Below, in pieces: positions 1,340 to 56,300 of a stretch of 64,000 nt of DNA. The stretch is from an uncultured Gemmatimonadales bacterium. Lineage in GTDB: Bacteria; Gemmatimonadota; Gemmatimonadetes; Gemmatimonadales; GWC2-71-9. A program made the position numbers and the translations under genes. Numbering within the stretch: the first letter of the stretch is position 1; every line of letters begins with the position of its first letter. Location: NCBI GenBank assembly GCA_963779755.1, contig CAVZZO010000001.1, forward strand, positions 672,001 to 736,000, in the 5' to 3' direction. The notes beneath the pieces were generated by a model. The model had not been told where the DNA came from. It made no database searches and saw only the letters and a list, made by a program, of their open reading frames with translations.

Positions 1340-1651
1340 GCCTGACGGCCTGCCCTCAGCGGCAGCAGCCTGATCGGTTCAACCAGCGAAGGCTGCCGCC
1401 CCGGCAGCTGGAAGCGCAGGTAGGGGGGGCTGAGCGCCCGCTGGGTTGCAGGGCCGACGAAGCCCAGGGTGGCGAGATCATACCCGGAAGCAACGGCGTG
1501 GCCGAACCTACGTGAACGGGGAACGTGCGGGCATAGGCAGACTTTTCGTCGGGGGTCATGGCGCGGCTCCGGGTGGAGGGAATCACAGGAGTCGCGGAAG
1601 GAGCTACGGGCCGCGCAGCGGCGTCAAGCGGGTATAGATGTCTAGTTAGGC
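1340..1651 (-). other. attC site interrupted by mini-IS110 element; R' degenerate (GTCAGGC)
   Basis: R'' GCCTAAC at 1645-1651; the rest (CTGCG CTTCCAGC...GCTGAGG...GTCAGGC) resumes at 1419-1340. Confidence 0.7.
1420..1644 (-). mobile_element. Non-autonomous ~225-bp IS110 derivative (MITE-like)
   Basis: 1507-1644 matches the left end of the IS110 at 14651-14788; ends in CCTAC like the full element. Confidence 0.75.
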
Positions 1652-6005: not shown

Positions 6006-6159
6006 GGGGGGAAATATAGGGTTTGTGTCGGTTCCTGTCCCGCTTAGGGCCGGAGAAAGAGCACGCCGTCATTGCGAGGGCGCGCAGCGCCCGTGGCAAT
6101 CCCACCGCTTCCGGCGGGGAGCTCCCCACCTCACCGCTTGCTCCTCACGCTCACCGCCG

Positions 6160-6940
6160 ACCTAACCCCCTGTCCCCCTTCCCTGTTGGGAAGGGGGGAC
6201 CGGGACGACCAGTTCGAAGAGAAGGGGGAACCGGGACGGCCGATGTAAAAGAGGCTGTCACCCTGAGGCCGCGCCAGCGGCTGAAGGGGCCGAAGCTGGA
6301 GGATGGCTTCGGTCCCTTCGCTGCGCTCAGGGTGACAACCCCCTGTCCCCCTTCCCTGTTGGAAAGGGGGGACCGGGACGGGCGGTGCGAAAGGGCTGTC
6401 ACCCTGAGGCCGCATCAGCGGCCGAAGGGGCCGAAGCTGGAGGATGGCTTCGGTCCCTTCGCTGCGCTCAGGGTGACCTAACCCCCTGTCCCCCTTCCCT
6501 GTTGGGAAGGGGGGACCGGGACGACCAGTTCGAAGAGAAGGGGGAACCGGGACGGCCGGTGTAAAAGAGGCTGTCACCCTGAGGCCGCACGTGCGGCCGA
6601 AGGGGCCGAAGCTGGAGGATGGCTTCGGTCCCTTCGCTGCGCTCAGGGTGACCTAACCCCCTGTCCCCCTTCCCTGTTGGGAAGGGGGAACCGGGACGGC
6701 CGGTGCGAAAGGGCTGTCACCCTGAGGCCGCATCAGCGGCCGAAGGGGCCGAAGCTGAAGGACGGTTTCGGTCCCTTCGCTGCGCTCAGGGTGACCTAAC
6801 CCCCTGTCCCCCTTCCCTGTTGGGAAGGGGGAACCGGGACGGCCGGTGTAAAAGAGGCTGTCACCCTGAGGCCGCACGTGCGGCCGAAGGGGCCGAAGTT
6901 GAAGGATGGTTTTCGGCCCCTTCGCTGCGCTCAGGGTGAC
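6160..6940. repeat. Tandem array of ~5 composite palindromic (REP-like) units, ~140-175 bp
   Basis: TGTCACCCTGAG...CTCAGGGTGAC alternating with CCCCTTCCCTGTTGGGAAGGGG hairpins. Confidence 0.9.
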
Positions 6941-6999
6941 ATTACGCGCGCCGCCGGCGCTCATTGCCCGGGCGCGAGAGACACCCAGCGCCGCGATCC

Positions 7000-11306: not shown

Positions 11307-11410
11307 GCCTAACGAAATGCGTTTCAGCCGCGAAGGCGCGGCCCTAGCGCCCGGAGGGCTTTTTTGAGCGGGTGCGCCGCGCCTTCGCCGTCTGCAAACG
11401 CTTGTTAGGC
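11307..11410 (-). other. attC site (104 bp)
   Basis: GCCTAAC-AAGCG-TTTGCAGA...GCTGAAA-CGCATTTC-GTTAGGC. Confidence 0.9.
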
Positions 11411-11709
11411 CTCCCGGCCAGCCGGCTCCGGCGACGTTCGGTCTCGACCCGATCGGCAAGGTACACCTTGAGCAGACTCTGATAGGGGACATCCCGCTCG
11501 TTGGCGAGCAACTTGAGCTCGGTAAGCAGGGTATCGGGCAGCCGGACCGAAATGGCTGTGGACGAAGGCCGGAGATGGGGAAAGCGCATCACCCGTGCCT
11601 TCGACCAATCCACATATTCGGTCGAGTCATGCGTGGCCCAGAAGTCGCGCTCCTCGTCCTCAGTCCGGAAGGTCGGGATGTTCTTCAATGCTCGCTTGGG
11701 CTTGGGCAT
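11344..11709 (-). CDS. BrnA-like antitoxin (RHH/CopG), C-terminus reads into attC
   Basis: IPTFRTEDEERDFWATHDSTEY...AISVRLP...DVPYQSLLK. Confidence 0.88.
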   Translation of the reverse strand: MPKPKRALKNIPTFRTEDEERDFWATHDSTEYVDWSKARVMRFPHLRPSSTAISVRLPDTLLTELKLLANERDVPYQSLLKVYLADRVETERRRSRLAGRPNKRLQTAKARRTRSKKPSGR

Positions 11710-12013
11710 ACTGGTGCCGCTCCTTCCGATTCATGTCCCGGGCCGCGATCACGCGAATCAGAGATCCGCGCACCGTGAAGACGAGGTAGAGCCTCCGGTT
11801 CGCGAGGGTCCGGCCGAGCGCTTGCCACCGGAGCTCGGTGCCGGAGTGCTTCGCATCGAATGCGGCGACCAGAGGTTCCTGAAAGAACGCCTGTTCGCAC
11901 TCCCCCGGCTCCACGTTGTGGCGCGCCAGCACTTTGGGCGCGTTGCCGGCGTCCCATTCAAAGCCGGTGCAGCGGCCCAGAATCGCGTAGGCGTCCGGCG
12001 GCTCTCCCGTCAC
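11660..12013 (-). CDS. BrnT family toxin
   Basis: FEWDAGNAPK...H..ECEQAF...RWQALGRT...VFTVRG..IRVIAAR. Confidence 0.92.
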   Translation of the reverse strand: MTGEPPDAYAILGRCTGFEWDAGNAPKVLARHNVEPGECEQAFFQEPLVAAFDAKHSGTELRWQALGRTLANRRLYLVFTVRGSLIRVIAARDMNRKERHQYAQAQASIEEHPDLPD

Positions 12014-12203: not shown

Positions 12204-12658
12204 ATGTACGCGGATCCTTTCGGGCTGCTTGCCCAGGATTGTTGTATCGAAACGGGGGATTGGCGAAAGGATAACCTGCTTCACCCTGCTGTTACAGCGG
12301 CAAGAGAGACAACCCGATGCTGGGAGTAGCTGTGGGTCTCCTGGCCGTTGCAGGTGGGGCCGAACTGGCTGCTCCCAGGTTATTTGCCGCGGCCACCGCT
12401 GCTCTTCCTAAGGTACCGTTTGAGAAATTCCAGGACTGGGGACGAAATGTTGTCCAATGGGGCCGTGGGGCAGCGGGGGCAATTCAGCGGGTTTCTGAAG
12501 TGACGGCCGAGCAGGCCTCTAAATTGGATCCACAGAAAGTGAAGATGGCTCGCGACTTCTACCAGAAAGCTGTTGATGCTGGCCGAGGGGGAGCCGCCGC
12601 ACCTGAACGAGTAAAGCTGATGGAACGCATTTTAGACCTGCAGCAGAGAACCCATTAG
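12204..12658 (+). CDS. Orphan Rhs C-terminal toxin tip (DUF4951-like), one apparent frameshift
   Basis: Starts MYADPFGL (Rhs DPxGL); removing 2 nt in the GA repeat at ~12305 joins ORF 12317-12658 (WGRG..GA..R...RDFY...ER..LM.RI). Confidence 0.65.
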
Positions 12659-12705
12659 TGGCTCGGTCCGGTCTATTCGAGCATTGCAACACGGAGGAAG
12701 AGCCA

Positions 12706-12953
12706 TGCTGGAAGCAGCGGTCACACTTCGGCTTACGAATAGATGCGAAACTGCGCGGAAGCTCGTGATTGAGCCATGGACCACCGAGTTTCGACTGCAA
12801 CCTGGGCACACTTACGACTTGGTGATATCAGGGGACCTTGGCCTCCCCTTAGAGGTTGAGTTCGAGGACGACGAACTAACCGTATACACTTTCGATTCCG
12901 CCAATGCCTCCTTCAAGATTTCCGAAGGCGGGGCTGAACTTAAACCACTGTAG
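12706..12953 (+). CDS. Putative immunity protein
   Basis: 82-aa acidic ORF directly after the toxin tip, GGAGG upstream; its stop codon lies in the IS end. Confidence 0.55.
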
Positions 12954-13437
12954 GAGCCCGGCCCTGTCTAGCCTGGGGCGCTCGGGGCGCCTCCGGGTTG
13001 TCGGGCCTGAACTCCGAGGGGTCGGGTCTAGTAGGAGCCTCGCGGGCTGCCGCGCGTGGCGGACCTCGGCCGGCGGAAAAGGAAAGTGGTGGGGGCCCCA
13101 CGAGTTCAGCGGAACCCATCGGCTCCAGACCTGCCGCGAGCCGGCTCCCTCGTCGGGCGTCATGCGCCCACGGGAGCAGACGGGGTCACCCCACCGGCTC
13201 CAAGGTGCTACCCGGTCCTTCGATTGTCAAAGAGCGCCGCGTTCCGCGTGCCGGCGGGATCCTGGCACCACCCTCATAGGTCGTTGAGGCTCGGGGCCTC
13301 CCACATCTTCATGGATGCTCTCCGATCCGCGGCCGGGCGGCCAGCAACTCTGTGCGCGGAACTCACCGAAGACGCCGGCGGCTCAAGGCAAATAGAGGGC
13401 GGCCCGGCGCGCACGCGCGGCTCCCCCCGGTCTCCGA
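12950..13437 (-). ncRNA. Putative bridge/seek RNA region (exact boundaries unknown)
   Basis: Non-coding end contains the donor-junction 14-mer (13026-13039) and candidate target guides (13277-13283, 13232-13237). Confidence 0.65.
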
Positions 13438-14703
13438 CTATTCGATCACCACCGGCTCTGCGTGATGCCGCTGGGTCTCCCAGCGCTCCCGGTCGAACGG
13501 CTGGCCCGACTGGAGCACGGCCAGGAGGAGCGGCACCAGCTTGCGGGCCACCGCGCAGACCGCCTTGGTCCGGAGCCCGCCATTGCGGGCCAGCAGGGCC
13601 TGGTAGACCCCGGTACAGCCCCCGGGGCTGGCACCAGCGGCCGCCGAGCAGAAAGAGTTGGCGGCGCAGCAACGGCCGGCCCCGTTTGGACTGCTTGCGC
13701 CGGCCCTGCACCGTGCCGCTGGAGCGCTCGACCAGATTCATGCCTGCGAGTTTCAGCACCTGGCGGGGATGAGTGAAGCGCTCCGGAGCGCCCAGCTCGG
13801 CCACGATCGTGGCCGCACAGGTGGCGCTCACCTCGGGAATGGTGGTCAGCGCCTTGGCCGCGGGGCACTGCTCCACCGAGCGCGGCGATCTGCTGGTCCA
13901 CCTCCGCGAGTTGCGCCCGCAGCAGGTCCCAGCGGGCCAGCAGCTGCTGGATCTCCAGCGCCGCTCGGGAGCGGCGCCGGCCAGGGCGACACTGGTGCGG
14001 GCGGACTCGCGCAGGACGTGGAGCTGCCCTGGGCTCACGTGGCCCCGCGAGACGGACCGCGCCAGGCGAGTCACCGCGGCCGGGGCGGCCGCCAGGAAGT
14101 CCTGCGGCAGCGGCCAGCGCGCCAGCAGGGCGCGCGGCGTGGGCTTGCGCACCTGCGAGAAGTGCGTCAGGAACTCGGGCCAGGCCAGGTCGAGCAGGCT
14201 CTGGAGACGGTTCTTGAACCGGGTTTCCTCGACGGTGAGCCGATGACGGTGGGTGGTGAGCAGCCGCAGCTCGAGATACGGGGGCTGCAGCGCCGGATAT
14301 CCCACGAAGATCCCCAGGCTCACCAGCTTGCAGATCTCGGCGGCATCCTTCGCGTCCGTCTTGTTGGGGCTGTTATCCTCCAGTTCCTTGGCCCGCTTGG
14401 TGTGGGCCGGCAGGATATTGACCAGCGCATAGCCGCGCGCCCGCAGGCACTCGGCAAACGTGAAGCCGTGATGGCCGGCGAACTCCAGCCCCACCAGCAT
14501 CTGGCCGGGCCGGATGCCGGGAAACCAGGCCGTCAACTGCGCGCGGCGGCCTCGAAGCCCGCGCGGCTCACCGGCACTCGGACCGGCTTCGTGCGGCGCC
14601 CATCGGGGCCCTGAGCAACCAGCACGTGGACCCGCTTCGCGGTATCCACGCCTACGTGAACGGGGAACGTGCGGGCATAGGCAGACTTTTCGTCGGGGGT
14701 CAT
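13438..14703 (-). CDS. IS110 family recombinase/transposase (about 4 apparent frameshifts)
   Basis: VGVDTAK, VGLEF, NKTDAKDA (DEDD); LTTIPEVS; LAGMNLVERSSG; SKRGRPLLR; AVARKL. Confidence 0.92.
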
Positions 14704-14789
14704 GGCGCGGCTCCGGGTGGAGGGAATCACAGGAGTCGCGGAAGGAGCTACGGGCCGCGCAGCGGCGTCAAGCGGGTATAGATGTCTAG

Positions 14790-15530
14790 TTAGGTAGCAC
14801 CACGAATCAGACGGCGGCCGTGAGGAGTGAGTTCCGCGTGTCTGACGCTCCCAATCTGGTAGTCCCCGGGACCTCCTGTGGTAATGATTCCGAGGTCTTT
14901 CAAGCCGCGCAAGATCAGATCAAGTCGCGCAACCGGGATGCCCGTCACCTCAAGCACCGTGGTCGTGTGAAGTCGGTACTGGTCTGGCGTCAGGGTGCGG
15001 AACTGGGCAAGTACCGCAGCCACCTCGGCGGCCGAGTCCACATCTGGGAGTAGCGACGGAGCAAGGGCGATGTATGTGCCAGGCACGAGGCGCGTTCGCG
15101 CGATTCCGACAGCGTGATTCAAGTCTGGATCAATACGAATGAAGCCGAAATCGCGAAGATCCTCCGCTGCCTCCAAGTACTCATGCGGCGAAACATCCAA
15201 ATCGGTAATGGCATCCTCTGCTTCAGCAAACTGGAACAGCTGGCTGGCCTCGCGATAGAGGCAGTAGGCCAGCAACCGCAGGGGCGTACCAGAAAGGCGG
15301 ACGAATGGAACTTGAATTGCTTCGAGCGCGGTCACGCGCTCTTCGAGACTGCCAACCCGGACACCGAGTTTCGATACCTGCTCATTCGCTACGCCGTAGC
15401 CGCCCAGGGCGGCAAGACGCGCTACCAAGGACGCCACGCCCGAAATCGGCTCGACAACCAAGGCCACGCCAGTGAGTGTCCACGCAGCGATGGTCGGCCA
15501 ATCGAGGCTCGAATCCTTTGCTGAGGTCAT
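14790..15530 (-). CDS. Hypothetical protein (hydrophobic N-terminus, possible winged-helix domains)
   Basis: MTSAKDSS... 246 aa, GAGG RBS, stop inside R'' ACCTAAC. Confidence 0.8.
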   Translation of the reverse strand: MTSAKDSSLDWPTIAAWTLTGVALVVEPISGVASLVARLAALGGYGVANEQVSKLGVRVGSLEERVTALEAIQVPFVRLSGTPLRLLAYCLYREASQLFQFAEAEDAITDLDVSPHEYLEAAEDLRDFGFIRIDPDLNHAVGIARTRLVPGTYIALAPSLLPDVDSAAEVAAVLAQFRTLTPDQYRLHTTTVLEVTGIPVARLDLILRGLKDLGIITTGGPGDYQIGSVRHAELTPHGRRLIRGAT

Positions 15531-15545
15531 CCCGCCTCGTAGTGC

Positions 15546-15685
15546 TACTAACGAAGTGCGTTTCAGCGGCGGCGCGATGCCCCGCTCCCTCACATCCGAC
15601 GCTTCCTTACCGCGACCGCTAGATGTCCCAGAAATGCACCAGCGGGCTGCAGCACCGTGCCCGCCGCTGCAAACGCTTGTTAGCT
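15546..15685 (-). other. attC site (140 bp)
   Basis: AGCTAAC-AAGCG-TTTGCAGC...GCTGAAA-CGCACTTC-GTTAGTA. Confidence 0.9.
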
Positions 15686-16000
15686 GCCGGCCGCAATGAC
15701 AATTTCGGGTGCGATGACGCTGCCGGTATGTGCGGAGCCCCCGCGCCGGGAGACCGGGCCGCCAACCGGGAGCCTCGGCGGGGCGGGAGAACGCTGGACG
15801 CCTCCGAACCTGCTCGGCGCACCTTCCTTGCCATGGAGCGCCCCGCGGAGAGAAACCTTGGGCGGCATCGCGGAGCCTTCCAGGCGTCCCGCGCAAGGAG
15901 GCCGGTGCCGCCTCACCGCTACCAACCAACTGCAGAGTTCCGGCGGCACCACCAGGCGCCCACCAAGAGATCAGCACTGGGCGGCCCGACTGGCGCGTGC
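15686..16000 (-). other. Gene-less cassette body, diverged copy
   Basis: Homologous to 17950-18262 with frame-breaking indels. Confidence 0.75.
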
Positions 16001-16140
16001 AGCTAACGAAGTGCGCGTGTGCTGCAGCGCGATCCCTCAGGATTTCACAAACCTACGCTTCCACAGCCGCACCGCTAGGAGGCCCGAGTGGGGGCCGGCG
16101 GCCCGCGCGACCGGCCTGCAGAACGACGCGCTTGTTAGGC
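16001..16140 (-). other. attC site (140 bp)
   Basis: GCCTAAC-AAGCG-CGTCG...CGCACTTC-GTTAGCT. Confidence 0.85.
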
Positions 16141-17228
16141 CCCGCGGATTCATATACTAAGTGCAACAACGGAAGGCGACGAAAGCGGTGATCTGACAGC
16201 AAGTAGACTTCTCTGTCCGCCAAGACAAGGAAGCCGACCATGAACTACCGCCAGATCACCGCCGCTGAACGGTACACCCTCGGCCTGCTTCGCCGACAGG
16301 GGCTGACGGCGGCAGCCATCGCGCGCCTCCTCGGTCGCCACCGCAGCACCATCGGCCGCGAGGTCCGGCGCAACCGCACCCACCACGACGGGGGCTACCG
16401 CCCCCAGCTCGCCGACTGGTACGCGCGGGGCCGGCGGAGCCACTCGCGCCGCAACACCCGGTTCACCGCCACGGATTGGGCGGAGGTGGAACGCCTGGTG
16501 CGCGAGGACTGGAGCCCCGAACAGATCGCCGGCCGCCTCGCCGCGGACGGACACCTCGCCATCAGTCACGAGACGATCTATCGGTACGTCTGGGCGGACC
16601 GCGCGGACGGCGGCACGCTCTACCAGCACCTCCGCGGCGCCCGCAAGCAGCGCCGCAAACGGTACGGGCGCTACGACAGCCGGGGCCGCCTGGCCGGGAA
16701 GCGGATGATCACGGAGCGGCCTGCGATCATCGAAGGCCGCAGCCAGGTCGGTCACTGGGAAGGCGACACCGTCCTCGGCGCGGGACAGGCCGGCCCCTGC
16801 GTGCTGACGCTGGTGGAACGGAAGACCGGCTATCTGATGCTCGGCCAACTCCACCAGCGGACGACCACCGCCGTCACGCGCCGGGCGACCCAGCTGATTC
16901 ATCGGGAAGCTCGCCCGGTGCGCACCATCACCGTGGACAACGGCACCGAGTTCCATGACTACGCGGCGATCGAACGGGAGACCGCCACGCGCTTCTACTT
17001 CGCCACGCCGCACCACAGCTGGGAGCGCGGAACCAACGAGAACACCAACGGCCTGCTGCGGCAGTACCTCCCGAAAGGCCACTCTATGGCGCACCTCACC
17101 CAGGCCGCGTGTGATCGCCTCGCCCGCAAACTCAACCGCCGACCCCGGAAGCGCCTCCTCTACCGCACCCCGGAGGAATGCTATGCACGATGAGGCTCAG
17201 TGTTGCACTACAAACTTGATATCAGACG
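16141..17228 (+). mobile_element. IS30 family insertion sequence
   Basis: Imperfect IRs ...TCATATACTAAGTGCAACA / TCAAGTTTGTAGTGCAACA; GC (or GGC) direct repeat. Confidence 0.88.
16240..17193 (+). CDS. IS30 family transposase
   Basis: WSPEQIAG, ISHETIY, GHWEGD, TVDNGTEF, WERGTNENTNGLLRQYLPKG. Confidence 0.97.
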   Translation: MNYRQITAAERYTLGLLRRQGLTAAAIARLLGRHRSTIGREVRRNRTHHDGGYRPQLADWYARGRRSHSRRNTRFTATDWAEVERLVREDWSPEQIAGRLAADGHLAISHETIYRYVWADRADGGTLYQHLRGARKQRRKRYGRYDSRGRLAGKRMITERPAIIEGRSQVGHWEGDTVLGAGQAGPCVLTLVERKTGYLMLGQLHQRTTTAVTRRATQLIHREARPVRTITVDNGTEFHDYAAIERETATRFYFATPHHSWERGTNENTNGLLRQYLPKGHSMAHLTQAACDRLARKLNRRPRKRLLYRTPEECYAR

Positions 17229-17807: not shown

Positions 17808-17949
17808 GCCTAACGGTCTGCGTTTCAGCGGCGGCGCGATGCCCCGCTCCCTCATAATCCTACGCTTCCTTACCGCGACCGCTAGATGTCCGAGCAATGC
17901 ACCAGCGGCCTGCAGCACCGTGCCCGGCCGCTGCAAACGCTTGTTAGCT
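17808..17949 (-). other. attC site (142 bp)
   Basis: AGCTAAC-AAGCG-TTTGCAGC...GCTGAAA-CGCAGACC-GTTAGGC. Confidence 0.92.
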
Positions 17950-18723
17950 GCCGGCCGCAATGACATTCTCGGTTGCGATGACGCTGCCGGCAGGTGCGGA
18001 GTCCCCACCCCGGGAGGCCCGGCCGCCCCCTCGGAGCTCCGGCGGGGCGGAAGATCGCTGGACGCTTGTCCACCGGGAACGACGCTGACCCTGCCCCGAC
18101 CGCCCCGCGGGGAGGGGCCCCGGGCGGCATGGCGGAGCCTGCCAGACGACCCGCGCAAGGAGGCCGGTGCCGCCTCACCTCCGCCAACCAGCTGAGGAAC
18201 TCCGGCGGCACCACCAGGAGCCCACCAAAAGATCAGCACTGGGAGGCCCGGCTGGCGCGTGCAGCTAACGGTCTGCGTTTCAGCGGCGGCGCGATGCCCC
18301 GCTCCCTCATAATCCTACGCTTCCTTACCGCGACCGCTAGATGTCCGAGCAATGCACCAGCGGCCTGCAGCACCGTGCCCGGCCGCTGCAAACGCTTGTT
18401 AGCTGCCGGCCGCAATGACATTCTCGGTTGCGATGACGCTGCCGGCAGGTGCGGAGTCCCCACCCCGGGAGGCCCGGCCGCCCCCTCGGAGCTCCGGCGG
18501 GGCGGAAGATCGCTGGACGCTTGTCCACCGGGAACGACGCTGACCCTGCCCCGACCGCCCCGCGGGGAGGGGCCCCGGGCGGCATGGCGGAGCCTGCCAG
18601 ACGACCCGCGCAAGGAGGCCGGTGCCGCCTCACCTCCGCCAACCAGCTGAGGAACTCCGGCGGCACCACCAGGAGCCCACCAAAAGATCAGCACTGGGAG
18701 GCCCGGCTGGCGCGTGCAGCTAA
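17814..18723 (-). repeat. Two tandem, apparently identical 455-bp gene-less cassettes
   Basis: Period 455 (17808 vs 18263); no credible ORF. Confidence 0.9.
18263..18404 (-). other. attC site (142 bp)
   Basis: Same as 17808-17949; R' GTTAGCT. Confidence 0.92.
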
Positions 18724-18806: not shown

Positions 18807-19784
18807 TCACCCCGTCTGGCCCAGCAGGTCCGCGGGACTCCGTACCCCCAGGCCGCCCCGGTTCAGGACATGGGTGTAGATCATCGTGGTCGAGACATCC
18901 CGGTGGCCCAGGAGCTCCTGTACGGTCCGGATGTCGTAGCCCGCCTCCAGCAGATGCGTGGCAAAGCTGTGCCGCAGGGTGTGACAGGTCGCCCGTTTGC
19001 CGATACCGCTGGCCCGCACCGCCTCCGCCATGGCCCGCTGCACTGCGGTCTCGTGGTAGTGATGCCGGCGCAGCTGCCCCGAGGCCGCGTGACGATGCCG
19101 CCGCCGAGCCGGAAAAACCCACTGCCAGGGCCAGGAGCATCCCGCTCGCGGATACTTCCGCTCCAGGCCATCGGGGAGCTCGACCCAGCCCGCCCCCTCA
19201 GCCAGATCCCGCCGGTGCCGCTCCCGCACCCGCTCCAGGTGGAGATGCAACGGCTGACGCACCGACTGCGCCAGGACGGTGACCCGATCCTTGGCGCCTT
19301 TGCCTCGGCGCAGCCGTATCTCCCCCCGTTCCAGGTCCAGATCCTTGACCCGCAAGGTGAGGCACTCAAGCAGCCGCAGGCCACTGCCATAGAGCAGGGC
19401 GGCTACCAGCGCCGAGACGCCACGCAGGTGTGCCAGTACGCTCCGGACTTCTCCCGGCGTCAGCACGACCGGCAGGCGCACCGGAGCCTTCGGCCGGGGA
19501 ATGCTCCCCATGTCCACCAATGGCCGCTCCAGGACCTCGGAGAAAAGGAACGAGAGGGCCGCCTGCGCCTGCGCCTGAGTTGAGGCGGAAACGTGCCGCT
19601 CGATGCGCAGATCGGCCAGGAATTGGAGTACTTCTTCCCGCCCCAGTTCCGCCGGAGGACGGAGGCCGTGAAACCGCACAAACCGCCGAACCCAGCCCAC
19701 GTAGGCCTCCTCGGTCCGCGGGCTGAAGTGCCGTAGCCGCAGGTTGAGCCGCAGGGCCTGCAGCAGTTTCGGTTTGGACTGCAT
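18807..19784 (-). CDS. intI: Integron integrase
   Basis: [16 protein letters not shown], IntI-specific [14 protein letters not shown]...[29 protein letters not shown]. Confidence 0.97.
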
Positions 19785-19892
19785 GAGAGTATCCCCGCGG
19801 AAATCCACAAGCTTGATCCGCGACGCCTTTCCACCCGTACCCCGCCAATGCCGAGAGGACCGAAAACGCCCGCGAACTCCTCCCTTGTGTAT

Positions 19893-36235: not shown

Positions 36236-36695
36236 ACACAGATTACGCAGATCAAAAAGGGATTACACAGATTTGCCCCGATCGACGGCGCAGCTTCGCG
36301 GAGCGTTGCCGAGATCCCCAACATACAAGAATCAGATTCTTTTGGGGTGCGCCGGCATGCTCTGGCGGAGCCTCACCCAGGGAACGGAGACCAATCTGCG
36401 TCACTCTGCGTAATCTGCGGTTGCAGTTTGCTCGATCCAACCTTTTCAGGAACACCTCCGGGTCCTACGCGGTGGCGGCTCCTTCCCGGCGGATAACTCC
36501 CGGAGGAGGAACACAGATTACGCAGATTAAAAAGGGATTACGCAGATTTGCTCCGATCCGCCGCGCAGCTCCATGGAGCTGCGCCGGGGATTCACACTAC
36601 TGATTCTTTGTTGTTGTTCTTGAGTGGGCGGGATCTGGATCGGAGGGCTGACCCGGCACGGGATCAATCCGTGTAATCTGTGTAATCTGTGGATT
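36236..36695. repeat. ACGCAGATT-type repeat cluster
   Basis: Two ~275-bp related units with inverted CAGATT/AATCTG arms. Confidence 0.85.
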
Positions 36696-36803
36696 CACGA
36701 TGAACAGCTTTCCGGGCGCGTGAACTCCTGGCGCCCATGTAGTCCGTGCCCGAGCCGCTCCAGGAGTCCAGGCGCAGCGCCGAGCGTCGCCGGCCCGCCC
36801 GAC

Positions 36804-37106
36804 TCAGAGCGCTGCCCCGAAGTACAGCCACCAGATGCCCGCCAGCAGGATGGCCGCGCACGCCGTCACGATGAACGGCCAGGTCTGCCAGCCCGCCCAG
36901 GGGCGCGGCTCCGTGACCAGCCCCCACGCCGATCCGGCCAGCGAGAGCAGGGCCGCCAGGAGCAGGACGGCGCCCAGATGACTGGAAAGCCCGCTGGCGC
37001 CACCACTGCCCTCGGAGAGCGAGCCGGCCAACGAGATCAAAGGGCCGACCACCAGAAGCGGCGCCAGAGCGAGCAGAAGGGGAAGGGCACGGGAACGGGC
37101 GCGCAC
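36804..37106 (-). CDS. Small membrane protein
   Basis: AGGAGG RBS then GTG; three hydrophobic segments. Confidence 0.6.
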   Translation of the reverse strand: MRARSRALPLLLALAPLLVVGPLISLAGSLSEGSGGASGLSSHLGAVLLLAALLSLAGSAWGLVTEPRPWAGWQTWPFIVTACAAILLAGIWWLYFGAAL

Positions 37107-37136
37107 GGCGAGCACCTCCTGGGTCCACAGGGTACG

Positions 37137-38940
37137 TGATCCACAGATTACGCTGCGGACCCTGACGGCAGCCCTGGTACCTGACGGCCGGCGCAGGTCC
37201 GTTTGTGATCCGCAGATTGCGCAGATTGCGCAGATTTTGCTCCAATGCTTGCAGCACTCCGCAGAGCGTTGCCGGGCGACGTACAACGAACAACTGGTTC
37301 TTCTTTTTGTGGGTGCCTGGGCCGGCATCGGAGCACGGCCCGCGCCGGGAACCATCTGCGTAATCTGCGTAATCTGTGGATCAACAATTCGGATCTGTCC
37401 CGATCACCGAGCCCGAGGGACCGGCTGTGGAGCCCTGCCGGCAGGTGCCTGGGCCGGCATCGGAGCACGGCCCGCGCCGGGAACCATCTGCGTAATCTGC
37501 GGATCAACAATTCGGATCTGTCCCGATCACCGAGCCCGAGGGACCGGCTGTGGAGCCCTGCCGGCAGCCTTGGCACAGGGGGGTCAGCGCAGGTCCGTTT
37601 ATGTGATCCGCAGATTGCGCAGATTACGCAGATTTTGTTCCAATGCTTGCAGCACTCCGCAGAGCGTTGCCGGGCGACGTACAACGAACAACCGGTTCTT
37701 CTTTTTGTGGGCGCCTGGGCCGGCATCGGAGCGCCACCCGGTCTGGGAAGCCATCCGTGTAATCTGTGTAATCTGTGGATCAACAATTCGGATCTGTCCC
37801 GATCACGGAGCCCGAGGGACCGGCTGTGGAGCCCTGCCGGCAGCCTTGGCACAGGGGGGTCAGCGCAGGTCCGTTTATGTGATCCGCAGATTACGCAGAT
37901 TACGCAGATTTTGTTCCAATGCTTGCAGCACTCCGCAGAGCGTTGCCGGGCGACGTACAACGAACAACCGGTTCTTCTTTTTGTGGGCGCCTGGGCCGGC
38001 ATCGGAGCGCCACCCGGTCTGGGAAGCCATCCGTGTAATCTGTGTAATCTGTGGATCAACAATTCGGATCTGTCCCGATCACGGAGCCCGAGGGACCGGC
38101 CGTGGAGCCCTGCCGGCAGCCCTGGTACAGCGGGGTCACCGCAGGTCCGTTGATGTGATCCGCAGATTACGCAGATTTTGTTCCAATGCTTGCAGCACTC
38201 CGCAGAGCGTTGCCGGGCGACGTACAACGAACAACCGGTTCTTCTTTTTGTGGGTGCCTGGGCTGCATCGGAGCGCCACCCGGTCAGGGAAGCGATCCGT
38301 GTAATCTGTGTAATCTGTGGATCAACAATTCGGATCTGTCCCGATCACGGAACTCGAGGGACCGGCCGTGGAGCCCTGCGGGCAGCCCTGGTACAGCGGG
38401 GTCACCGCAGGTCCGTTTATGTGATCCGCAGATTACGCAGATTGTGCTCCAATGCTTGCAGCACTCCGCAGAGCGTTGCCGGGCGACGTACAACGAACAA
38501 CCGGTTCTTCTTTTTGTGGGTGCCTGGGCTGCATCGGAGCGCCACCCGGTCAGGGAAGCGATCCGTGTAATCTGTGTAATCTGTGGATCAACAATTCGGA
38601 TCTGTCCCGATCACGGAACTCGAGGGACCGGCCGTGGAGCCCTGCGGGCAGCCCTGGTACAGGGGGGTCACCGCAGGTCCGTTTATGTGATCCGCAGATT
38701 ACGCAGATTACGCAGATTTTGCTCCAATGCTTGCAGCACTCCGCAGAGCGTTGCCGGGCGACGTACAACGAACAACCGGTTCTTCTTTTTGTGGGTGCCT
38801 GGGCTGCATCGGAGCGCGGCCCGGTCGTTGAATCAATCCTCGTAATCTGCGTAATCTGCGGTTGCACCACACACAACCGACCCTTTCACGGATCCGTGCG
38901 ACCGAGCTCGCGGAGCCGATCTGCGTAATCTGCGGATCAG
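37137..38940. repeat. Tandem array of ~266-276-bp units with ACGCAGATT inverted arms
   Basis: gtgatccgcagatt recurs at ~37205, 37603, 37879, 38155, 38421, 38688. Confidence 0.92.
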
Positions 38941-45017: not shown

Positions 45018-46456
45018 TCCACAGATTTCACAGATTGCGCAGATTGGCTCGGTGCGCTTGCGGCGCTTCGCCAAGGCCTGCCAGTATCCCCAGAAGAAAC
45101 TCGTTGTCTTTGTTGGGAGCGCAGGGCAACGCTCCATACGCCTGGTTCCCGGGCGTCGTGGCGCGGGGAAGGCTACCGGATCACGGGGGAACCGCAGATT
45201 ACGCAGATGTACGCAGATTTGGCTCCGTTCGCCTGCAGCGATCCGCCAAGCCTCGCCTCACGCCAACAAAACAGAAGATTCGTTGTTTGCTGGGAGCGCA
45301 GGCAAGGCTCCATGGAGCTGCGCCGACAGACGAGGCAATCTGCGTACATCTGCGTTCAATCTGCGTAATCTGTGTTCCCCCTCCGGGAACCCAGCCGTGC
45401 AAGGAGCCCGGGACGTAACCGACGCTTCGCCCTGGTTGGCCGACCTGGCCGATTGATTGAGACCGCAGATTACGCAGATTACGCAGATTTGGCTCCGTTC
45501 GCCTGCAGCGCTCCGCCAAGCCTCGCCTCACGCCAACAAAACAGAAGATTCGTTGTTTGCTGGGAGCGCGGGCAACGCTCCATGGAGCTGCGCCGGCAGA
45601 CGAGGCAATCTGCGTACATCTGCGTTCAATCTGCGTAATCTGTGTTCCCCCTCCGGGAACCCAGCCGTGCAAGGAGCCCGGGACGTAACCGACGCTTCGC
45701 CCTGGTTGGCCGACCTGGCCGATTGATTGAGTCCACAGATTTCACAGATTACGCAGTTTTGGCTCGGTTTGCCTGCAGCGATCCGCCAGGCCTCACCTCA
45801 CGCCAACAAAACAGAAGATTCGTTGTTTGCTGGGAGCGCAGGCAACGCCCCATGGAGCTGCGCCGGCAGACGAGGCAATCTGCGTACATCTGCGTTCAAT
45901 CTGCGTAATCTGTGTTCCCCCTCCGGGAACCCAGCCGTGCAAGGAGCCCGGGACGTAACCGACGCTTCGCCCTGGTTGGCCGACCTGGCCGATTGATTGA
46001 GTCCACAGATTTCACAGATTACGCAGTTTTGGCTCGGTTTGCCTCAAGCGATCCGCCAAGCCTCACCTCACGCCAACAAAACAGAAGATTCGTTGTTTGC
46101 TGGGAGCGCAGGCAACGCCCCATGGAGCTGCGCCGACAGACAGGGCAATCTGTGTACATCTGCGTTCAATCTGCGTAATCTGTGTTCCCCCTCCGGGAAC
46201 CCAGCCGTGCAAGGAGCCCGAGACGTAACCGACGCTTCGCCCTGGTTGGCCGACCTGGCCGATTGATTGAGTCCACAGATTTCACAGATTACGCAGTTTT
46301 GGCTCGGTTTGCCTGCAGCGATCCGCCAAGCCTCGCCTCACGCCAACAAAACAGAAGATTCGTTGTTTGCTGGGAGCGCAGGCAACGCCCCATGGAGCTG
46401 CGCCGGCAGACGAGGCAATCTGCGTACATCTGCGTTCAATCTGCGTAATCTGCGGT
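45018..46456. repeat. Tandem array of 270-bp units with ACGCAGATT inverted arms
   Basis: gattgattga at 45451, 45721, 45991, 46261. Confidence 0.95.
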
Positions 46457-46518
46457 TCCCTCTTGGTAGCCGCCGCGGCCCAAGGGCCCGAGGTCGCGAT
46501 GGCCCCGGCGCCCCGGGC

Positions 46519-47496
46519 TCAGTGGTCCTCTGGTGTCTCTTTCCTGGTGCCTGCCTCCTTCTTGCCGGCCGCCCTGGCGGGCCCTTCCCCGGCCGTCATG
46601 GACGTATCGGGGCCCTCTTTCGATATCAGGCGGCCGCCTCCCGCCATCCCCAGCAGCGACGGCACATTGAGCGAGTCGGCCAGGCCCGACGGCACCACCA
46701 TGAGCGAGCCCCGCTTGACGATACTCTCGTACAGCATGTTCATCGCCCGCAGCTGCATGGCGTCGGGGTGATTGCGGTAGGAGTCGGCCGCGTCCACGAA
46801 CTTGTGGGCGATTTCGGTCTCGGCGGTACCCAGGATGATGCGCGCCTGCCGTTCCCGTTCCGCCTGGGCCTGGCGGGACATGGCGTCTTCCAGCCCGGCG
46901 GGGATGATGACATCCCGGATCTCCACCGACTGCACCTGGATGCCCCAGGTCGCCATCTTCTCCTCCAGGGCCAGCTTGAGCCCGTGGCCCAGCTCGACCC
47001 GCGACTGGATCAGCTCCGCCAGGTCGTGCTTGCCGATGGCGTCCCGCAGCTGCGTCTGCGCCGAGAGGATGACCGCCTCGTCGTAGTCCTGTACCTCCAG
47101 GGCGGCGCGCTCGGCGTCTCGGACGATCCAGAACGCAATGGCATCCACGTTCACCGGCACCGTGTCGCGGGTGAGGCACGATTCGGCTCCGAACGCGGCG
47201 GTCCGGATCCGCTGGTCGATGGTGTAGGCCACCCGGTCCAGGATGGGGATGATGACGAAGTAGCCGGGCCCGCGGAGGCCCCGGTAACTGCCCAGCCGCA
47301 GGAGGACGGCCTTCTCCCACTGGTCGGTGTACTTGATGGCGGAGGCGATCAGCACCCCCAGCGCCAGGCCGGCCAGGCCGGCCAGCGGCGGCGCCACGCC
47401 GGCAAGGAACAGCGCGCCGGCCAGACCGGCCCCGACGATCAGCCCTGCTGAGAGCGCGGCGAAGGAGTATCGCGTGTCATTCGGCCTGTGTCTCAT
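46519..47496 (-). CDS. SPFH/band 7 (stomatin-like) protein
   Basis: WEKAVLLRLG, LTRDTVPVNVDA, AQTQLRDAIG, QAQAERERQA. Confidence 0.93.
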   Translation of the reverse strand: MRHRPNDTRYSFAALSAGLIVGAGLAGALFLAGVAPPLAGLAGLALGVLIASAIKYTDQWEKAVLLRLGSYRGLRGPGYFVIIPILDRVAYTIDQRIRTAAFGAESCLTRDTVPVNVDAIAFWIVRDAERAALEVQDYDEAVILSAQTQLRDAIGKHDLAELIQSRVELGHGLKLALEEKMATWGIQVQSVEIRDVIIPAGLEDAMSRQAQAERERQARIILGTAETEIAHKFVDAADSYRNHPDAMQLRAMNMLYESIVKRGSLMVVPSGLADSLNVPSLLGMAGGGRLISKEGPDTSMTAGEGPARAAGKKEAGTRKETPEDH

Positions 47497-53656: not shown

Positions 53657-53819
53657 GGATTCCTGACGGGGACTCTAGGGATGCCGCGAAGCCCGACTGC
53701 GGTCATCCAAGACTTATTAAGAGAGATTAAAGGTTTCAGGAAGGCGCGATGAAGGCTCCTTAAAGCCGCAGATTCGCTCCGCCGATGAACGCCGTGCTAC
53801 CAGTCGGCGGTCCGGCGGT

Positions 53820-54600
53820 GAAACCTGACGGCGGCCCTGGTACAGCGCGGTTGGCTCAGGTCAGTTTATGGAACCGCAGATTACACAGATTACACAGATT
53901 ACGCAGATTGGCTCCGATGCCTGCGGCGCACTCCATGGCGCGTTGCCGGGCGACTCATAGAAAACATTCTGTTCACTTTTTTGGTGGGTGACTGGGTTGG
54001 ATCGGCGTGCCACCCGGGTCTGCGTAATCTGCGGCTACCTCAACGGATCCGTCCTGCTCGCCATGGTCGGCGGACCGGTTGTGGATCCTGACGGCGGCCC
54101 TGGTACAGCGCGGTTGGCTCAGGTCAGTTTATGGAACCGCAGATTACACAGATTACGCAGATTGGCTCCGATGCCTGCGGCGCACTCCATGGCGCGTTGC
54201 CGGGCGACTCATAGAAAACATTCTGTTCTCTTTTTTGGTGGGTGACTGGATTGGATCGGCGCGCGGCCCGGGTCTGCGTAATCTGCGGTTACCTCAACGG
54301 ATCCGTCCTGCTCGCCATGGTCGGCGGACCGGTTGTGGATCCTGACGGCGGCCTTGGTACAGCGCGGTTGGCTCAGGTCAGTTTATGGAACCGCAGATTA
54401 CACAGATTACACAGATTACGCAGATTGGCTCCGATGCCTGCGGCGCACTCCATGGCGCGTTGCCGGGCCGCCACAAAGAACAAGTGTTCTCTCTTTCTTC
54501 TGGGTGAGCGGGGCTAGGATCGGCGCGCCGCCCGCGGCGGAAGTAATCTGCGTACATCTGCGTAATCTGCGGCTAACTCAATCGATCCGTCCTGCTGGCC
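53820..54600. repeat. Three ~255-265-bp tandem ACGCAGATT-type units
   Basis: ggctcaggtcagtttatggaaccgcagatt at ~53853, 54116, 54370. Confidence 0.92.
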
Positions 54601-54839
54601 GGGGTCCGCCGACCGGCTGCGGACCCCGCCGGGACGCTGGGATCCATGCGATCCCGTGCCGGGCCCACCCTGCTCCTGCCGGCCGTCAGCGCCTCCGTCG
54701 GGAATACGGTGAGGCCGACGCCGATCTAGAAGGGGAGAGGAGGCGATATCCCCCAGAAGCGGGCTAGAAGCCAAGGAAAAGCCAAGGGGCCGGAGACGGC
54801 CGCTGTGGACTTTCTTTTCCCCCAACTAAAGGAGCGAGG

Positions 54840-55349
54840 ATGCGCGTCAGCGATCTTGAACGCCTGTACGACTATCACTACTGGGCCAACCGGCGATTGC
54901 TCGGAGCTGTCTCCTGGCTTACGCCGGAGCAATTCACCCGGTCCATCGCCGGCAGTTACGGCTCGATTCGGAATACCCTGGTCCACATTCTGAGCGCCGA
55001 GTGGGGCTGGCTCGATCGGTGTGGCGGCCACCAACGGGGCGAGCGGTTGAATCCGCGGGATTACGCGACCGTCGAAGCGGTTGCCCAGGCCTGGGCCCGG
55101 GTGGAGGGGCACGTCCGGAGCTTCCTGTCCGGCCTCGAGGATGAGGACCTGACACGCAGTATCGAATTCACCATCGGCGGTGGCCCTGAACAGTCGGCTC
55201 CGCTGGGGGATCTGCTGCAGCACGCGGCGGTGCACGCGGTGCATCATCGGGGACAAGTGGCTCTGCTGTTGCGCGTCCTGGGCTATGTGCCTGGCAATTT
55301 CGACCTGCTCCTGTACGTCGGCGAGGAACGCGACGCACCTGCCCTCTGA
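54840..55349 (+). CDS. DinB family protein
   Basis: YHYWANRRLL, SIRNTLVHI, HAVHHRGQ. Confidence 0.93.
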   Translation: MRVSDLERLYDYHYWANRRLLGAVSWLTPEQFTRSIAGSYGSIRNTLVHILSAEWGWLDRCGGHQRGERLNPRDYATVEAVAQAWARVEGHVRSFLSGLEDEDLTRSIEFTIGGGPEQSAPLGDLLQHAAVHAVHHRGQVALLLRVLGYVPGNFDLLLYVGEERDAPAL

Positions 55350-55394
55350 TTTTCAGGCGAATCATGGAGACTAGCGGACCCGCTGTAGACACTG

Positions 55395-56300
55395 CCGGCG
55401 GCCCTGGTACAGCGCGGTTGGCTCAGATCAGTTTATGGAACCGCAGATTACACAGATTACGCAGATTGGCTCCGATGCCTGCGGCACTCCCCGGAGCGTT
55501 GCCCGGGTGACTCATAGAAACTTGTGTTCCTGTTTCGGTGGGTGACTGGATTGGATCGGCGCGCCGCCCGGGCCGGAGGTAATCTGCGTACATCTGCGTA
55601 ATCTGCGGCCGCGGACCGGTTGTGGATCCTGACGGCAACCTTGGTGCTGACGGTTGGCCCAGGTCCGTTTAGTGATCCACAGATTACACAGATTACGCAG
55701 ATTGACTCCGATGCCAGCGGCACTCCATGGCGCGTTGCCGGGCCGCCACAAAGAACAATTGTTCTCTCTTTTTTCTGGGTGAGCGGGGCTAGGATCGGCG
55801 CGCCGCCCGGGCCGGAGGTCATCTGCGTACATCTGCGTAATCTGCGGTTACCTGAACGGATCCGTCCTGCTCGCCATGGTCCGCGGACCGGTTGTGGATC
55901 CCGGCGGCGGCCCTGATACAGCGGGGTTGGCTCAGGTCCGTTTAGTGATCCACAGATTACGCAGATTACGCAGATTGACTCCGATGCCTGCGACACTCCG
56001 TGGAGCGTTGCCGGGCCGCCACAAAGAACAATTGTTCTCTCTTTTTTCTGGGTAGTCGGGGTTAGCATCGGCGCGCCGCCCGTGGCGGAAGTAATCTGCG
56101 TACATCTGCGTAATCTGCGGCTACCTCAGCCGATCCGTCCTGCTCTTTTCATGGTCCTCGGACCGGTCGTGGATCCTGACGGCAACCTTGGTACTGACGG
56201 TTGGCCCAGGTCCGTTTGGTGATCCACAGATTACACAGATTTACGCAGATTTTGCTCCCATGCCTGCAGCGCTCCGTGAAGCGTTGCCGGGCCGTCACAA
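55395..56300. repeat. ACGCAGATT-type tandem units (same subfamily as 53820-54600)
   Basis: About 3.5 units of ~240-270 bp. Confidence 0.9.

Follow-up and report, generated by a model that had tools for sequence, protein, structure and literature searches.

A decaying IS110-family element at an integron attC site in a Gemmatimonadales bacterium carries a probable bridge/seek-type RNA in its 3′ tail

The stretch of DNA analyzed here, hereafter the window, comprises 64,000 nucleotides from an uncultured Gemmatimonadales bacterium (GenBank assembly GCA_963779755.1, contig CAVZZO010000001.1, positions 672,001 to 736,000), and coordinates given without a locus label are positions within it. In the cassette array of a chromosomal integron it contains an element of the IS110 family whose recombinase gene is broken and whose long 3′ non-coding tail, judging from a conserved, covarying fold and from complementarity to the element's own left end, probably encodes a bridge/seek-type RNA of about 200 nt. 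The features of the window that we discuss as parts of the element and its site lie on the minus strand and are collected in Table 1.

Open reading frames (ORFs) within 13274–14730 matched the Pfam families PF01548 (DEDD_Tnp_IS110, E = 1e-16) and PF02371 (Transposase_20, E = 5e-16), with the ORF frameshifted. An intact relative of the recombinase, P0002 (422 aa, 90% identical), aligned to the window in three tblastn pieces covering residues 1–74, 49–366, and 362–422, which fell in frames −3, −2, and −3 with 78–93% identity and placed the shifts of reading frame near 14482–14560 and near 13607–13623. Given these frame changes relative to P0002, we regard the gene as a pseudogene. P0002 itself scored 197 bits against the NCBIfam model NF033542 ("IS110 family RNA-guided transposase", cut-off 140), and the solved structures nearest to it are the transposases of IS621 (PDB 8wt6, E = 2e-21) and ISCro4. 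These matches establish the identity of the element and bear out an earlier first-pass annotation, made from the sequence alone, in which the region was taken for the non-coding end of an IS110/IS1111-type element. About 84 nt separate the left end from the start codon, while the stop codon (13440–13438) is followed by a non-coding tail of 468 nt, and the relatives have the same layout with a long downstream tail. A long non-coding region 3′ of the gene is the arrangement of the IS1111 side of the family, as described in the excerpts of Siddiquee et al. (2024, PMC11187229) and Durrant et al. (2024, PMC11208160) on which our comparisons draw.

An attC R'' box immediately precedes the element, which is inserted in the orientation of the cassettes. 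Repeats of the form CTAAC...GTTAG, 100–145 nt long, are spaced through approximately 1.6–18.4 kb of the window and, because an integron integrase gene (intI) accompanies them at 18807–19808, we identify them as attC sites; attC-like sites lie at 2988, 9399, 11309, 12074, 15548, 16003, 17810, and 18265. The first-pass annotation had placed the element at an attC R'' box, and the box, the array, and intI were all found; its left target arm, CTACCTA, is likewise real and forms part of that box (14797–14791). A footprint of the same element's left end abuts a second box, GCCTAAC (GTTAGGC), at the far end of the cassette array, where the remainder of that copy is gone; the last six bases of the 144-bp match (1507–1650) are the adjoining attC box (1645–1650, GTTAGG). 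Such footprints at array ends are said to have been described for IS1111-attC elements by Tetu and Holmes in 2008 and by Post and Hall in 2009. The box type GCCTAAC-T adjoins both the footprint, at 1645, and the element at L007 (L-numbers denote the loci of relatives), which lies in another attC array, at GGCCTAAC-T. Three insertion sites, two of them independent within the window and one in L007, present CCTAAC-T followed by the left end.

A scan of genome contigs returned 41 loci with related elements, 38 of them labelled as Gemmatimonad taxa, and in 35 of 42 sources (these loci plus the window) a core bounded by UGAAGAUGUG and CGGCGCUGUUUGACAA was found downstream of the gene; the seven sources lacking it are mostly truncated loci. 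We aligned 23 of these sequences (alignment A2) and 32 (alignment A3), and RNAalifold predicted the same two helices, P1 and P2, on both, with compensatory changes in 7 of 13 predicted pairs. On A2, 92.3% of the 207 cells of P1 and P2 are paired and seven of nine pairs change on both sides; none of 500 column shuffles reached the observed value on any of five measures, and sliding the partner strand by 1–3 columns reduced pairing to 25–45% of cells. The covariation of P1 and P2 is thereby established, and since compensatory changes keep the helices paired, it is the signature of an RNA or of a single-strand fold. The helices close an internal loop with seg1 (AUGAAGAUGUG) as its 5′ strand, a hairpin of variable length (P3) as its cap, and seg2 as its 3′ strand. 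The tail hence appears, from its sequence conservation, to hold a conserved, covariation-supported RNA with an internal loop like that of bridge RNAs. As regards the RNA, what stands of the first-pass annotation is a guide-type RNA in general; the two guide segments that it had proposed do not find support, as set out below. Close to the 3′ end of the core, RNAalifold predicted a small hairpin between the family-wide motif and an upstream CACGC, but its sequence is invariant. Further upstream helices that we had seen by eye (P0, S1, and Pa) were not recovered by RNAalifold on A3.

We compared every 5-mer of the RNA, and also every 4-mer, by alignment column with offsets from each copy's own junctions, in both senses. 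A single strong signal emerged: 5-mers of seg1 complement the left end in 21 of 22 copies from 10 clade labels, at one fixed column and offset; the exception, L001, has a single mismatch. In ACAC-type elements, named like the AGAC type after the junction block described below, the pairing extends to ACACATCT. Two separate clades, represented by L007 and L028, have ACCTCT at the left end and AGAGG in seg1, so that both sides have changed. The complementarity of seg1 to the left end is the one robust guide-like pairing of this RNA. It lies on the 5′ side of the loop, where the complementary strand is also reported to lie in IS1111-type RNAs (PMC11187229).

The opposite strand, seg2, behaves differently. 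Its clade consensus is CCGACGAGCUGUGAG, from which the window copy departs at 4 of 15 positions, and its last two bases follow the first two bases of the junction block, so that AGAC-type elements have AG there and the ACAC type has AC or AU, with L006 as the exception. Aside from this end dinucleotide, seg2 is conserved within clades and does not adapt to the individual flank. No second copy of the seg2 word was found in the elements or in the flanks close to them. Several candidates for a target-reading strand were tried and dropped: as a left target guide, seg2 agrees with the flank past the core dinucleotide, when read in register with the junction, only in L013, L014, and L035 and to some extent in L028 (by our reading); an upstream same-sense strand, NNNNN-AG/AC-...CGUC, follows the block type and matches neither the left flank nor the right end; and the strands of P1 match the GGATC of rhs-type flanks in two clades only.

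We then consider the ends of the element. Left ends are sharp, with AGACATCTAT or ACACATCTA following unrelated flanks in 27 loci. On the right, the six copies of clade C, two of which are 98.7% identical yet lie at different sites, are alike through GAGGCCCUGGGAUCCGGAGAGCC (module Y), ACGAGGCTCCACGTT (module X), and ACAC, and their similarity stops after a loose CNGG just past this series. Aligned by eye, 15 of 19 positions in the X2 module of the window copy agree with X at the clade-C right end, and the same Y-X2 occurs in L002, L007, and L009. The same block stands at both junctions of individual copies (AGAC in the window copy and L007, GAC in L001 and L035, all four read by eye, and ACAC in clade C), and in uninterrupted sites the (A)GAC block is present once. 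In the window copy AGAC occupies 14787–14784 and 12969–12966; the longer run common to both ends, the 7-bp CTAGACA, is this block plus chance identity of the neighboring bases. The sequence does not place the exact crossover point inside the AGAC block, within which the exchange presumably occurs. The boundary that the first-pass annotation had drawn leaves no dinucleotide common to both junctions in any of the four copies in which this could be checked (the window copy, L007, L001, and L035), whereas the IS110 mechanism needs a core common to donor and target (PMC11208160). Likewise, the AC core it had proposed falls away, as the AC that ends CCTAAC is not repeated at the right junction and the junctions instead have AGAC in common. 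From the block common to both junctions and the homology of Y-X, we therefore conclude that the element ends at 12966 and that GAGCGC, formerly read as the right arm of the target, lies inside it, at 12983–12978 in its own X2 module. These observations establish the approximate boundaries, and the placement of the element at 12966–14787 is probably right.

Table 1. Features of the IS110-family element, its insertion site, and its relatives
Feature	Position	Strand	Basis or remark
IS110-family element, 1822 bp	12966..14787	minus	left end AGACATCTAT common with relatives; right-end order Y-X-block by homology
Recombinase pseudogene, DEDD RuvC-like and Transposase_20 domains	13438..14703	minus	Pfam; tblastn of P0002
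RNA-like core of 3′ tail, about 200 nt	13224..13423	minus	runs from GAGCCGCGCG to motif CGGCGCUCUUUGACAA
Helices P1 and P2 closing internal loop	13257..13328	minus	covariation; RNAalifold; P1 is GGACC/GGUCC
P1 in window copy	13328-13324 with 13261-13257	minus	one column off the alignment (read by eye)
P2 in window copy	13318-13315 with 13268-13265	minus	four pairs, stacked on P1
seg1, loop 5′ strand, AAGAUGU within AUGAAGAUGUG	13303..13309	minus	complementary to left end ACATCT (14785-14780)
seg2, loop 3′ strand, UCAACGACCUAUGAG	13273..13287	minus	contains UCAA and CGACCUA
Family-wide motif CGGCGCUCUUUGACAA	13224..13239	minus	contains GCGCUC-U-UUGA of the first-pass annotation
X1 module, GAGGCUCCUACU-AGAC-CCGACC	13020..13041	minus	internal target-like site; segment most like left flank plus block
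Right-end modules Y (13008-12986) then X2 (12985-12966, ends in AGAC)	12966..13008	minus	homology
Left flank: attC R'' box ACCTAAC (14795-14789)	14789..14798	minus	holds TAA stop of cassette ORF 14790-15977
Integron integrase gene	18807..19808	minus	TIGR02249, 425.5 bits against cut-off 265
Footprint of same element's left end	1507..1644	minus	part of 100% match over 1507-1650
rhs-type left flanks	L001, L003, L010, L013, L014, L017, L019, L020, L023, L025, L026, L028, L029, L030, L035		

In one point the lineage does not fit the IS1111 definition: it has no subterminal inverted repeats (about 7–17 bp). Comparing the first with the last 40 nt of 17 elements, we found a best inverted match of 6–10 nt with one mismatch, and these matches never exceeded those of shuffled sequences (between 0.07 and 1.00 of the shuffles, depending on the element, gave a match at least as long).

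The protein search scored 8000 candidates, of which 492 reached E ≤ 1e-10. Apart from P0002, identity to the recombinase is 68% or less, and the named matches are Gemmatimonadetes. Among plasmid records, 169 matched the recombinase, all at less than 60% identity and the best at 32%; in this protein search of the plasmid collection only distant IS110 members appeared, none of them annotated as attC-type. A different kind of target predominates among the relatives: 15 of 26 family copies have left flanks at the ends of rhs cores, where the opposite strand encodes ...SDPFGL, and an uninterrupted site of this kind (L025:5208–5250) codes for the last residues of the Rhs-associated core domain (TIGR03696). 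At rhs core genes, copies of this type occupy the strand antisense to the conserved end that encodes ...GDPVNxxDPFGL. Where such a site is occupied, the rhs core does not resume in the right flank, so that the elements sit just upstream of orphan toxin-tip fragments. Literature searches on IS110 together with Rhs gave nothing relevant among the matches listed, and those on attC-targeting IS1111 elements and bridge/seekRNAs gave nothing on the present lineage.

Between the core and the right end, each element carries one to three units composed of GAGGnnC, 5–8 variable bases, the block, and YnGGCC or CCGACC; such a unit resembles a complete target site. The X1 module of the window copy reads GCUCCUA-CU-AGAC, compared with GCTACCTAA-CT-AGAC at the left junction; at the homologous place, L001 and L007 have CCTAAC and clade C has CCTAAC-AC. 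Using 17 representatives of 22 copies (L014, L020, L026, L029, and L039 were dropped because each duplicates a combination of clade and flank class), we found that the six bases before the tail block match the element's own left flank at 3.35 of 6 positions, compared with 2.49 of 6 for the flanks of other elements, and 20000 permutations gave p = 0.0004 for 6 bases, 0.0015 for 7, and 0.008 for 8. This is suggestive of one of two roles: the modules may encode a left guide of the same sense, or, as the left arm of the donor, they may have to resemble the left target. At L029:2917–3005, approximately 33–120 nt past the RNA core, a 44-nt unit is duplicated in tandem with GTT-AGAC on either side, as though left behind by recombination at an internal site that resembles an end.

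Taken together, we propose that the 3′ tail of this decaying element, lodged at an attC R'' box, probably encodes a bridge/seek-type RNA of about 200 nt, which would be transcribed and bound by the recombinase. In this RNA the stacked helices P1 and P2 would close an internal loop capped by the variable hairpin P3. Seg1 would serve as a donor guide comparable to the RDG of IS621, although placed on the 5′ side as in IS1111-type RNAs, and the 3′ strand of the loop, which includes CGACCUA, ends in the junction dinucleotide. Downstream follow the one to three target-like modules (GAGGnnC...-AGAC/ACAC-YnGGCC), the last of which forms the right end, and these modules may carry or mirror the specificity for the left target.

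A number of observations weigh against this proposal. A target-reading segment was not found, as the k-mer scans gave no consistent match to the left or right flank at any RNA column, and Rfam returned no relevant match for the core, either at gathering cut-offs or at E values up to 10. The link between modules and flanks is statistical only, relatedness can inflate tests of this kind, and an earlier, cruder module-flank matrix was not clearly separated. The right boundary comes from homology and not from an empty site of the window copy, and the rule for right ends is made less tidy by L001 and L035, which lack X2 and stop at Y plus GAC. When the flanks of the junctions were rejoined in silico, they folded unlike a good attC under either boundary (z +0.5 to +1.0), while two of four other attCs of the same array, folded for comparison, gave z −3.4 and −5.9; the R' half of the interrupted attC may be degenerate. 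Finally, the RNA segment GGCGCUC (13238–13232) is perfectly complementary to GAGCGCC of X2 (12984–12978) in four of the six closest relatives (the window copy, L002, L007, and L009) and has one mismatch in L001 and L035; this complementarity may reflect pairing of the RNA over a long range, a contact with DNA, or coincidence.

The model of the first-pass annotation was more specific. In it, CGACCUA served as the left guide and GCGCUC as the right guide, on either side of a loop closed by UCAA/UUGA, for the target CTACCTA-AC-GAGCGC. All of its strings are present as named on the minus strand (UCAA 13287–13284, CGACCUA 13283–13277, GUGCC 13268–13264, GGCAC 13252–13248, GCGCUC 13237–13232, U 13231, and UUGA 13230–13227), and their joint occurrence is uncommon by chance: in 2000 dinucleotide shuffles of the 473-nt minus-strand stretch 13442–12970 (the tail plus 5 nt), exactly the two named words occurred in order in 0.45% and, with the 4-bp closure, in 0 of 2000. 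Under a flexible rule, in which any 7-mer of the 13-nt left flank with at most one mismatch and any 6-mer from eight starts at the beginning of the supposed right arm were accepted, the words occurred in order in 27.7% of shuffles and, with closure, in 2.1%. CGACCUA moreover lies on the genuine 3′ strand of the loop, and the unusual divergence of seg2 in the window copy (4/15) could reflect retargeting rather than decay. Its 6/7 match to the left flank, however, is one base out of register with the junction, and L007, at the same type of site, has no matching seg2 but CGACGAACUGUGAG, which agrees with the flank at 4 of 7 positions (homologous register, by eye). As for GCGCUC, its first five bases occur in 30 of 32 relatives at attC-type and rhs-type sites alike, with differing flanks, and the sixth is C only in the six closest relatives; GCGCUC-U-UUGA belongs to a family-wide motif, CGGCGCU(C/G)UUUGACAA. 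The closure fares no better, with UCAA replaced by CCGA or CCCA in most relatives and its first U-A pair found in 3 of 23. The 5′ arm of the GUGCC/GGCAC hairpin is the 3′ strand of P2, with which the hairpin conflicts, and two of its pairs hold in only 3 and 9 of 23 sequences. Closure and hairpin together pair in 64.7% of cells on A2, a value that 235 of 500 column shuffles equal or exceed, and their covariation score is 0.099 against a shuffled mean of 0.102. Alignment of homologous ends and comparison with flanks, the check that the annotation had suggested, returned conserved, covarying P1 and P2 helices but no consistent flank match. The string pattern is not trivially random, but it is caused otherwise, by a family-wide motif and by the element's own right-end module, in which GAGCGC lies. 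The boundaries as formerly drawn share no core. The proposed guides and closing helix are not the working parts, and the model as a whole, largely refuted already by the relatives, is scarcely credible.

Two further explanations would keep part of the evidence and reassign the rest. The element might end after Y (approximately 12986), with GAGCGCC... as the L'' part of a conserved type of attC and GGCGCUC as a right guide that reads it in the window copy, L002, L007, and L009. Y is indeed common to the six closest relatives, L001 and L035 diverge just past it, uninterrupted attCs of the window and L007 have, after CCTAAC, an AAGCGCC that is similar to GAGCGCC, and the complementarity between the two segments is perfect in the four copies concerned. 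Yet X2 aligns by eye with the X after which six clade-C copies diverge, the absence of a dinucleotide common to the junctions in all four testable copies runs against the IS110 mechanism (PMC11208160), and near-identical 20-nt attC arms would be needed in four genomes when attCs differ even within one array. The motif is also unchanged in L001 and L035 despite their different flanks. We consider a boundary after Y improbable. Alternatively, the conserved tail might work only as DNA, as recombinase-binding ends, a promoter, or a terminator. The lack of an Rfam match would agree with this, the repeated Y/X modules look like protein-binding or pseudo-end DNA sites, and the small RNA downstream of ISPpu9 is dispensable for transposition in the excerpted account (PMC12288879). 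A purely DNA role does not readily accommodate the compensatory changes that keep P1 and P2 paired, whereas complementarity between seg1 and the left end, with two double changes, fits the logic of a guide; NCBIfam furthermore places the protein in an RNA-guided IS110 equivalog, and bridge RNAs are predicted in 93% of IS1111-group elements (excerpts of PMC11208160). We regard this explanation as highly unlikely and retain that of a bridge/seek-type RNA.

A bolder extension of the bridge/seek-type proposal is conceivable, although we hold it to be doubtful. The RNA, of about 200 nt and of an undescribed bridge-type family, might keep its left-target specificity not in the main loop but in the 3′-terminal modules (GAGGnnC-N5-8-AGAC/ACAC-YnGGCC), which would double as the left arm of the donor and as a nested set of alternative right ends, and module changes might have switched the lineage between the attC R'' box (the window copy and L007) and the DPxGL-coding end of the rhs core (15/26 copies). 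If true, placement at rhs genes would put the elements where exchange of cassettes or toxin tips could be driven.

The element resembles IS621 (excerpts of Durrant et al. 2024, PMC11208160) in combining a DEDD and Transposase_20 recombinase with a structured RNA in a non-coding end, in the hairpin-capped internal loop, of which one strand is the complement of the donor arm's top strand after the core, and in a short sequence common to donor and target. It differs in that its RNA lies downstream rather than upstream of the gene, the donor-complementary strand is on the 5′ side of the loop, the protein has approximately 420 aa compared with 326–341, and the junction block is up to 4 nt long (AGAC or ACAC) (PMC11208160). 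Unlike in IS621, no second loop with clear target complementarity was found here, the guide for the other donor arm was not identified, and the RNA has no Rfam or covariance-model match. Among attC-targeting elements, ISKpn4 and ISPst6 have seekRNAs of 82–86 nt with two target matches that were purified with the recombinase, and ISPa25 is predicted to carry the same target matches (excerpts of Siddiquee et al. 2024, PMC11187229). All three share with the present element a long non-coding region 3′ of the gene and insertion at one attC end, and in their seekRNAs, too, the same-sense strand comes second, after the one complementary to the top strand of the DNA (PMC11187229). Compared with these short seekRNAs and their two target matches, the core here is about 200 nt long and its only clear match is the element's own end (PMC11187229). 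Nor do the proteins appear close to those of ISKpn4, ISPst6, and ISPa25, judging by the best plasmid-borne IS110 match, which is 32% identical; subterminal inverted repeats are lacking, and the host belongs to the Gemmatimonadota, not the Proteobacteria. The IS1111-attC group as a whole (ISPa21, ISKpn4, ISPst6 type) is similar in its site- and orientation-specific attC insertion and in its degenerate array-end footprints, but the present lineage appears to be a different one, with most relatives at rhs sites (15/26). ISPpu9 of Pseudomonas putida, again IS110-family, has an RNA gene 3′ of the recombinase gene and targets repeated sequences, and its alternative circles, which imply internal end-like sites, are comparable to the nested X modules; in the excerpts of PMC12288879 that modularity is experimental, whereas here it is inferred from target-like modules and the L029 duplication.

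The surroundings of the element have features of their own. The integron is complete. Its cassettes are oriented like intI and lie 3′ of it; they do not diverge from the 5′ end of the integrase gene. Inside the array, between the attC-like sites at 16003 and 17810, is a gene for an IS30-family transposase (16240–17193; NF033563, 292.7 bits) that looks intact, and a BrnT/BrnA toxin-antitoxin pair with a CopG-type antitoxin forms a cassette between two attC sites (11344–12013). Beside intI, the end region of a cassette has recently been duplicated, giving two stretches of 300 nt (17810–18109 and 18265–18564), 455 nt apart, 100% identical, and each starting at an attC-like site. At 12317–12953, two small ORFs on the plus strand, one of them DUF4951, run opposite to the cassette orientation, and the second overlaps the sequence expected as the distal half of the interrupted attC. 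Elsewhere the window holds several large families of repeats, tandem or dispersed, at 6159–6950, 36263–38870, 45210–46589, and 53756–56292, with units of approximately 141–175, 266–276, and 270 nt, and many of these repeats bear the motif ATCTGCGTAATCTG in both orientations.

RNA-guided targeting of attC was already shown in 2024, and to this the present case adds nothing in principle; what it offers is a lineage that has diverged and whose larger RNA has no Rfam entry, together with a donor guide that is clear and covaries and with repeated target-like end modules. The window copy, being broken, is of little experimental use. RNA-guided recombinases of the IS110/IS1111 family are under development as programmable genome-editing tools, and attC-targeting members reshape integrons; to our knowledge, the way in which IS1111-like RNAs encode the choice of target is still poorly understood. 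The family, with 41 loci here and many more in metagenomes, is a compact natural data set on target choice by such RNAs, and the lineage shows natural retargeting between the attC boxes of integrons and the conserved end of rhs toxin genes.

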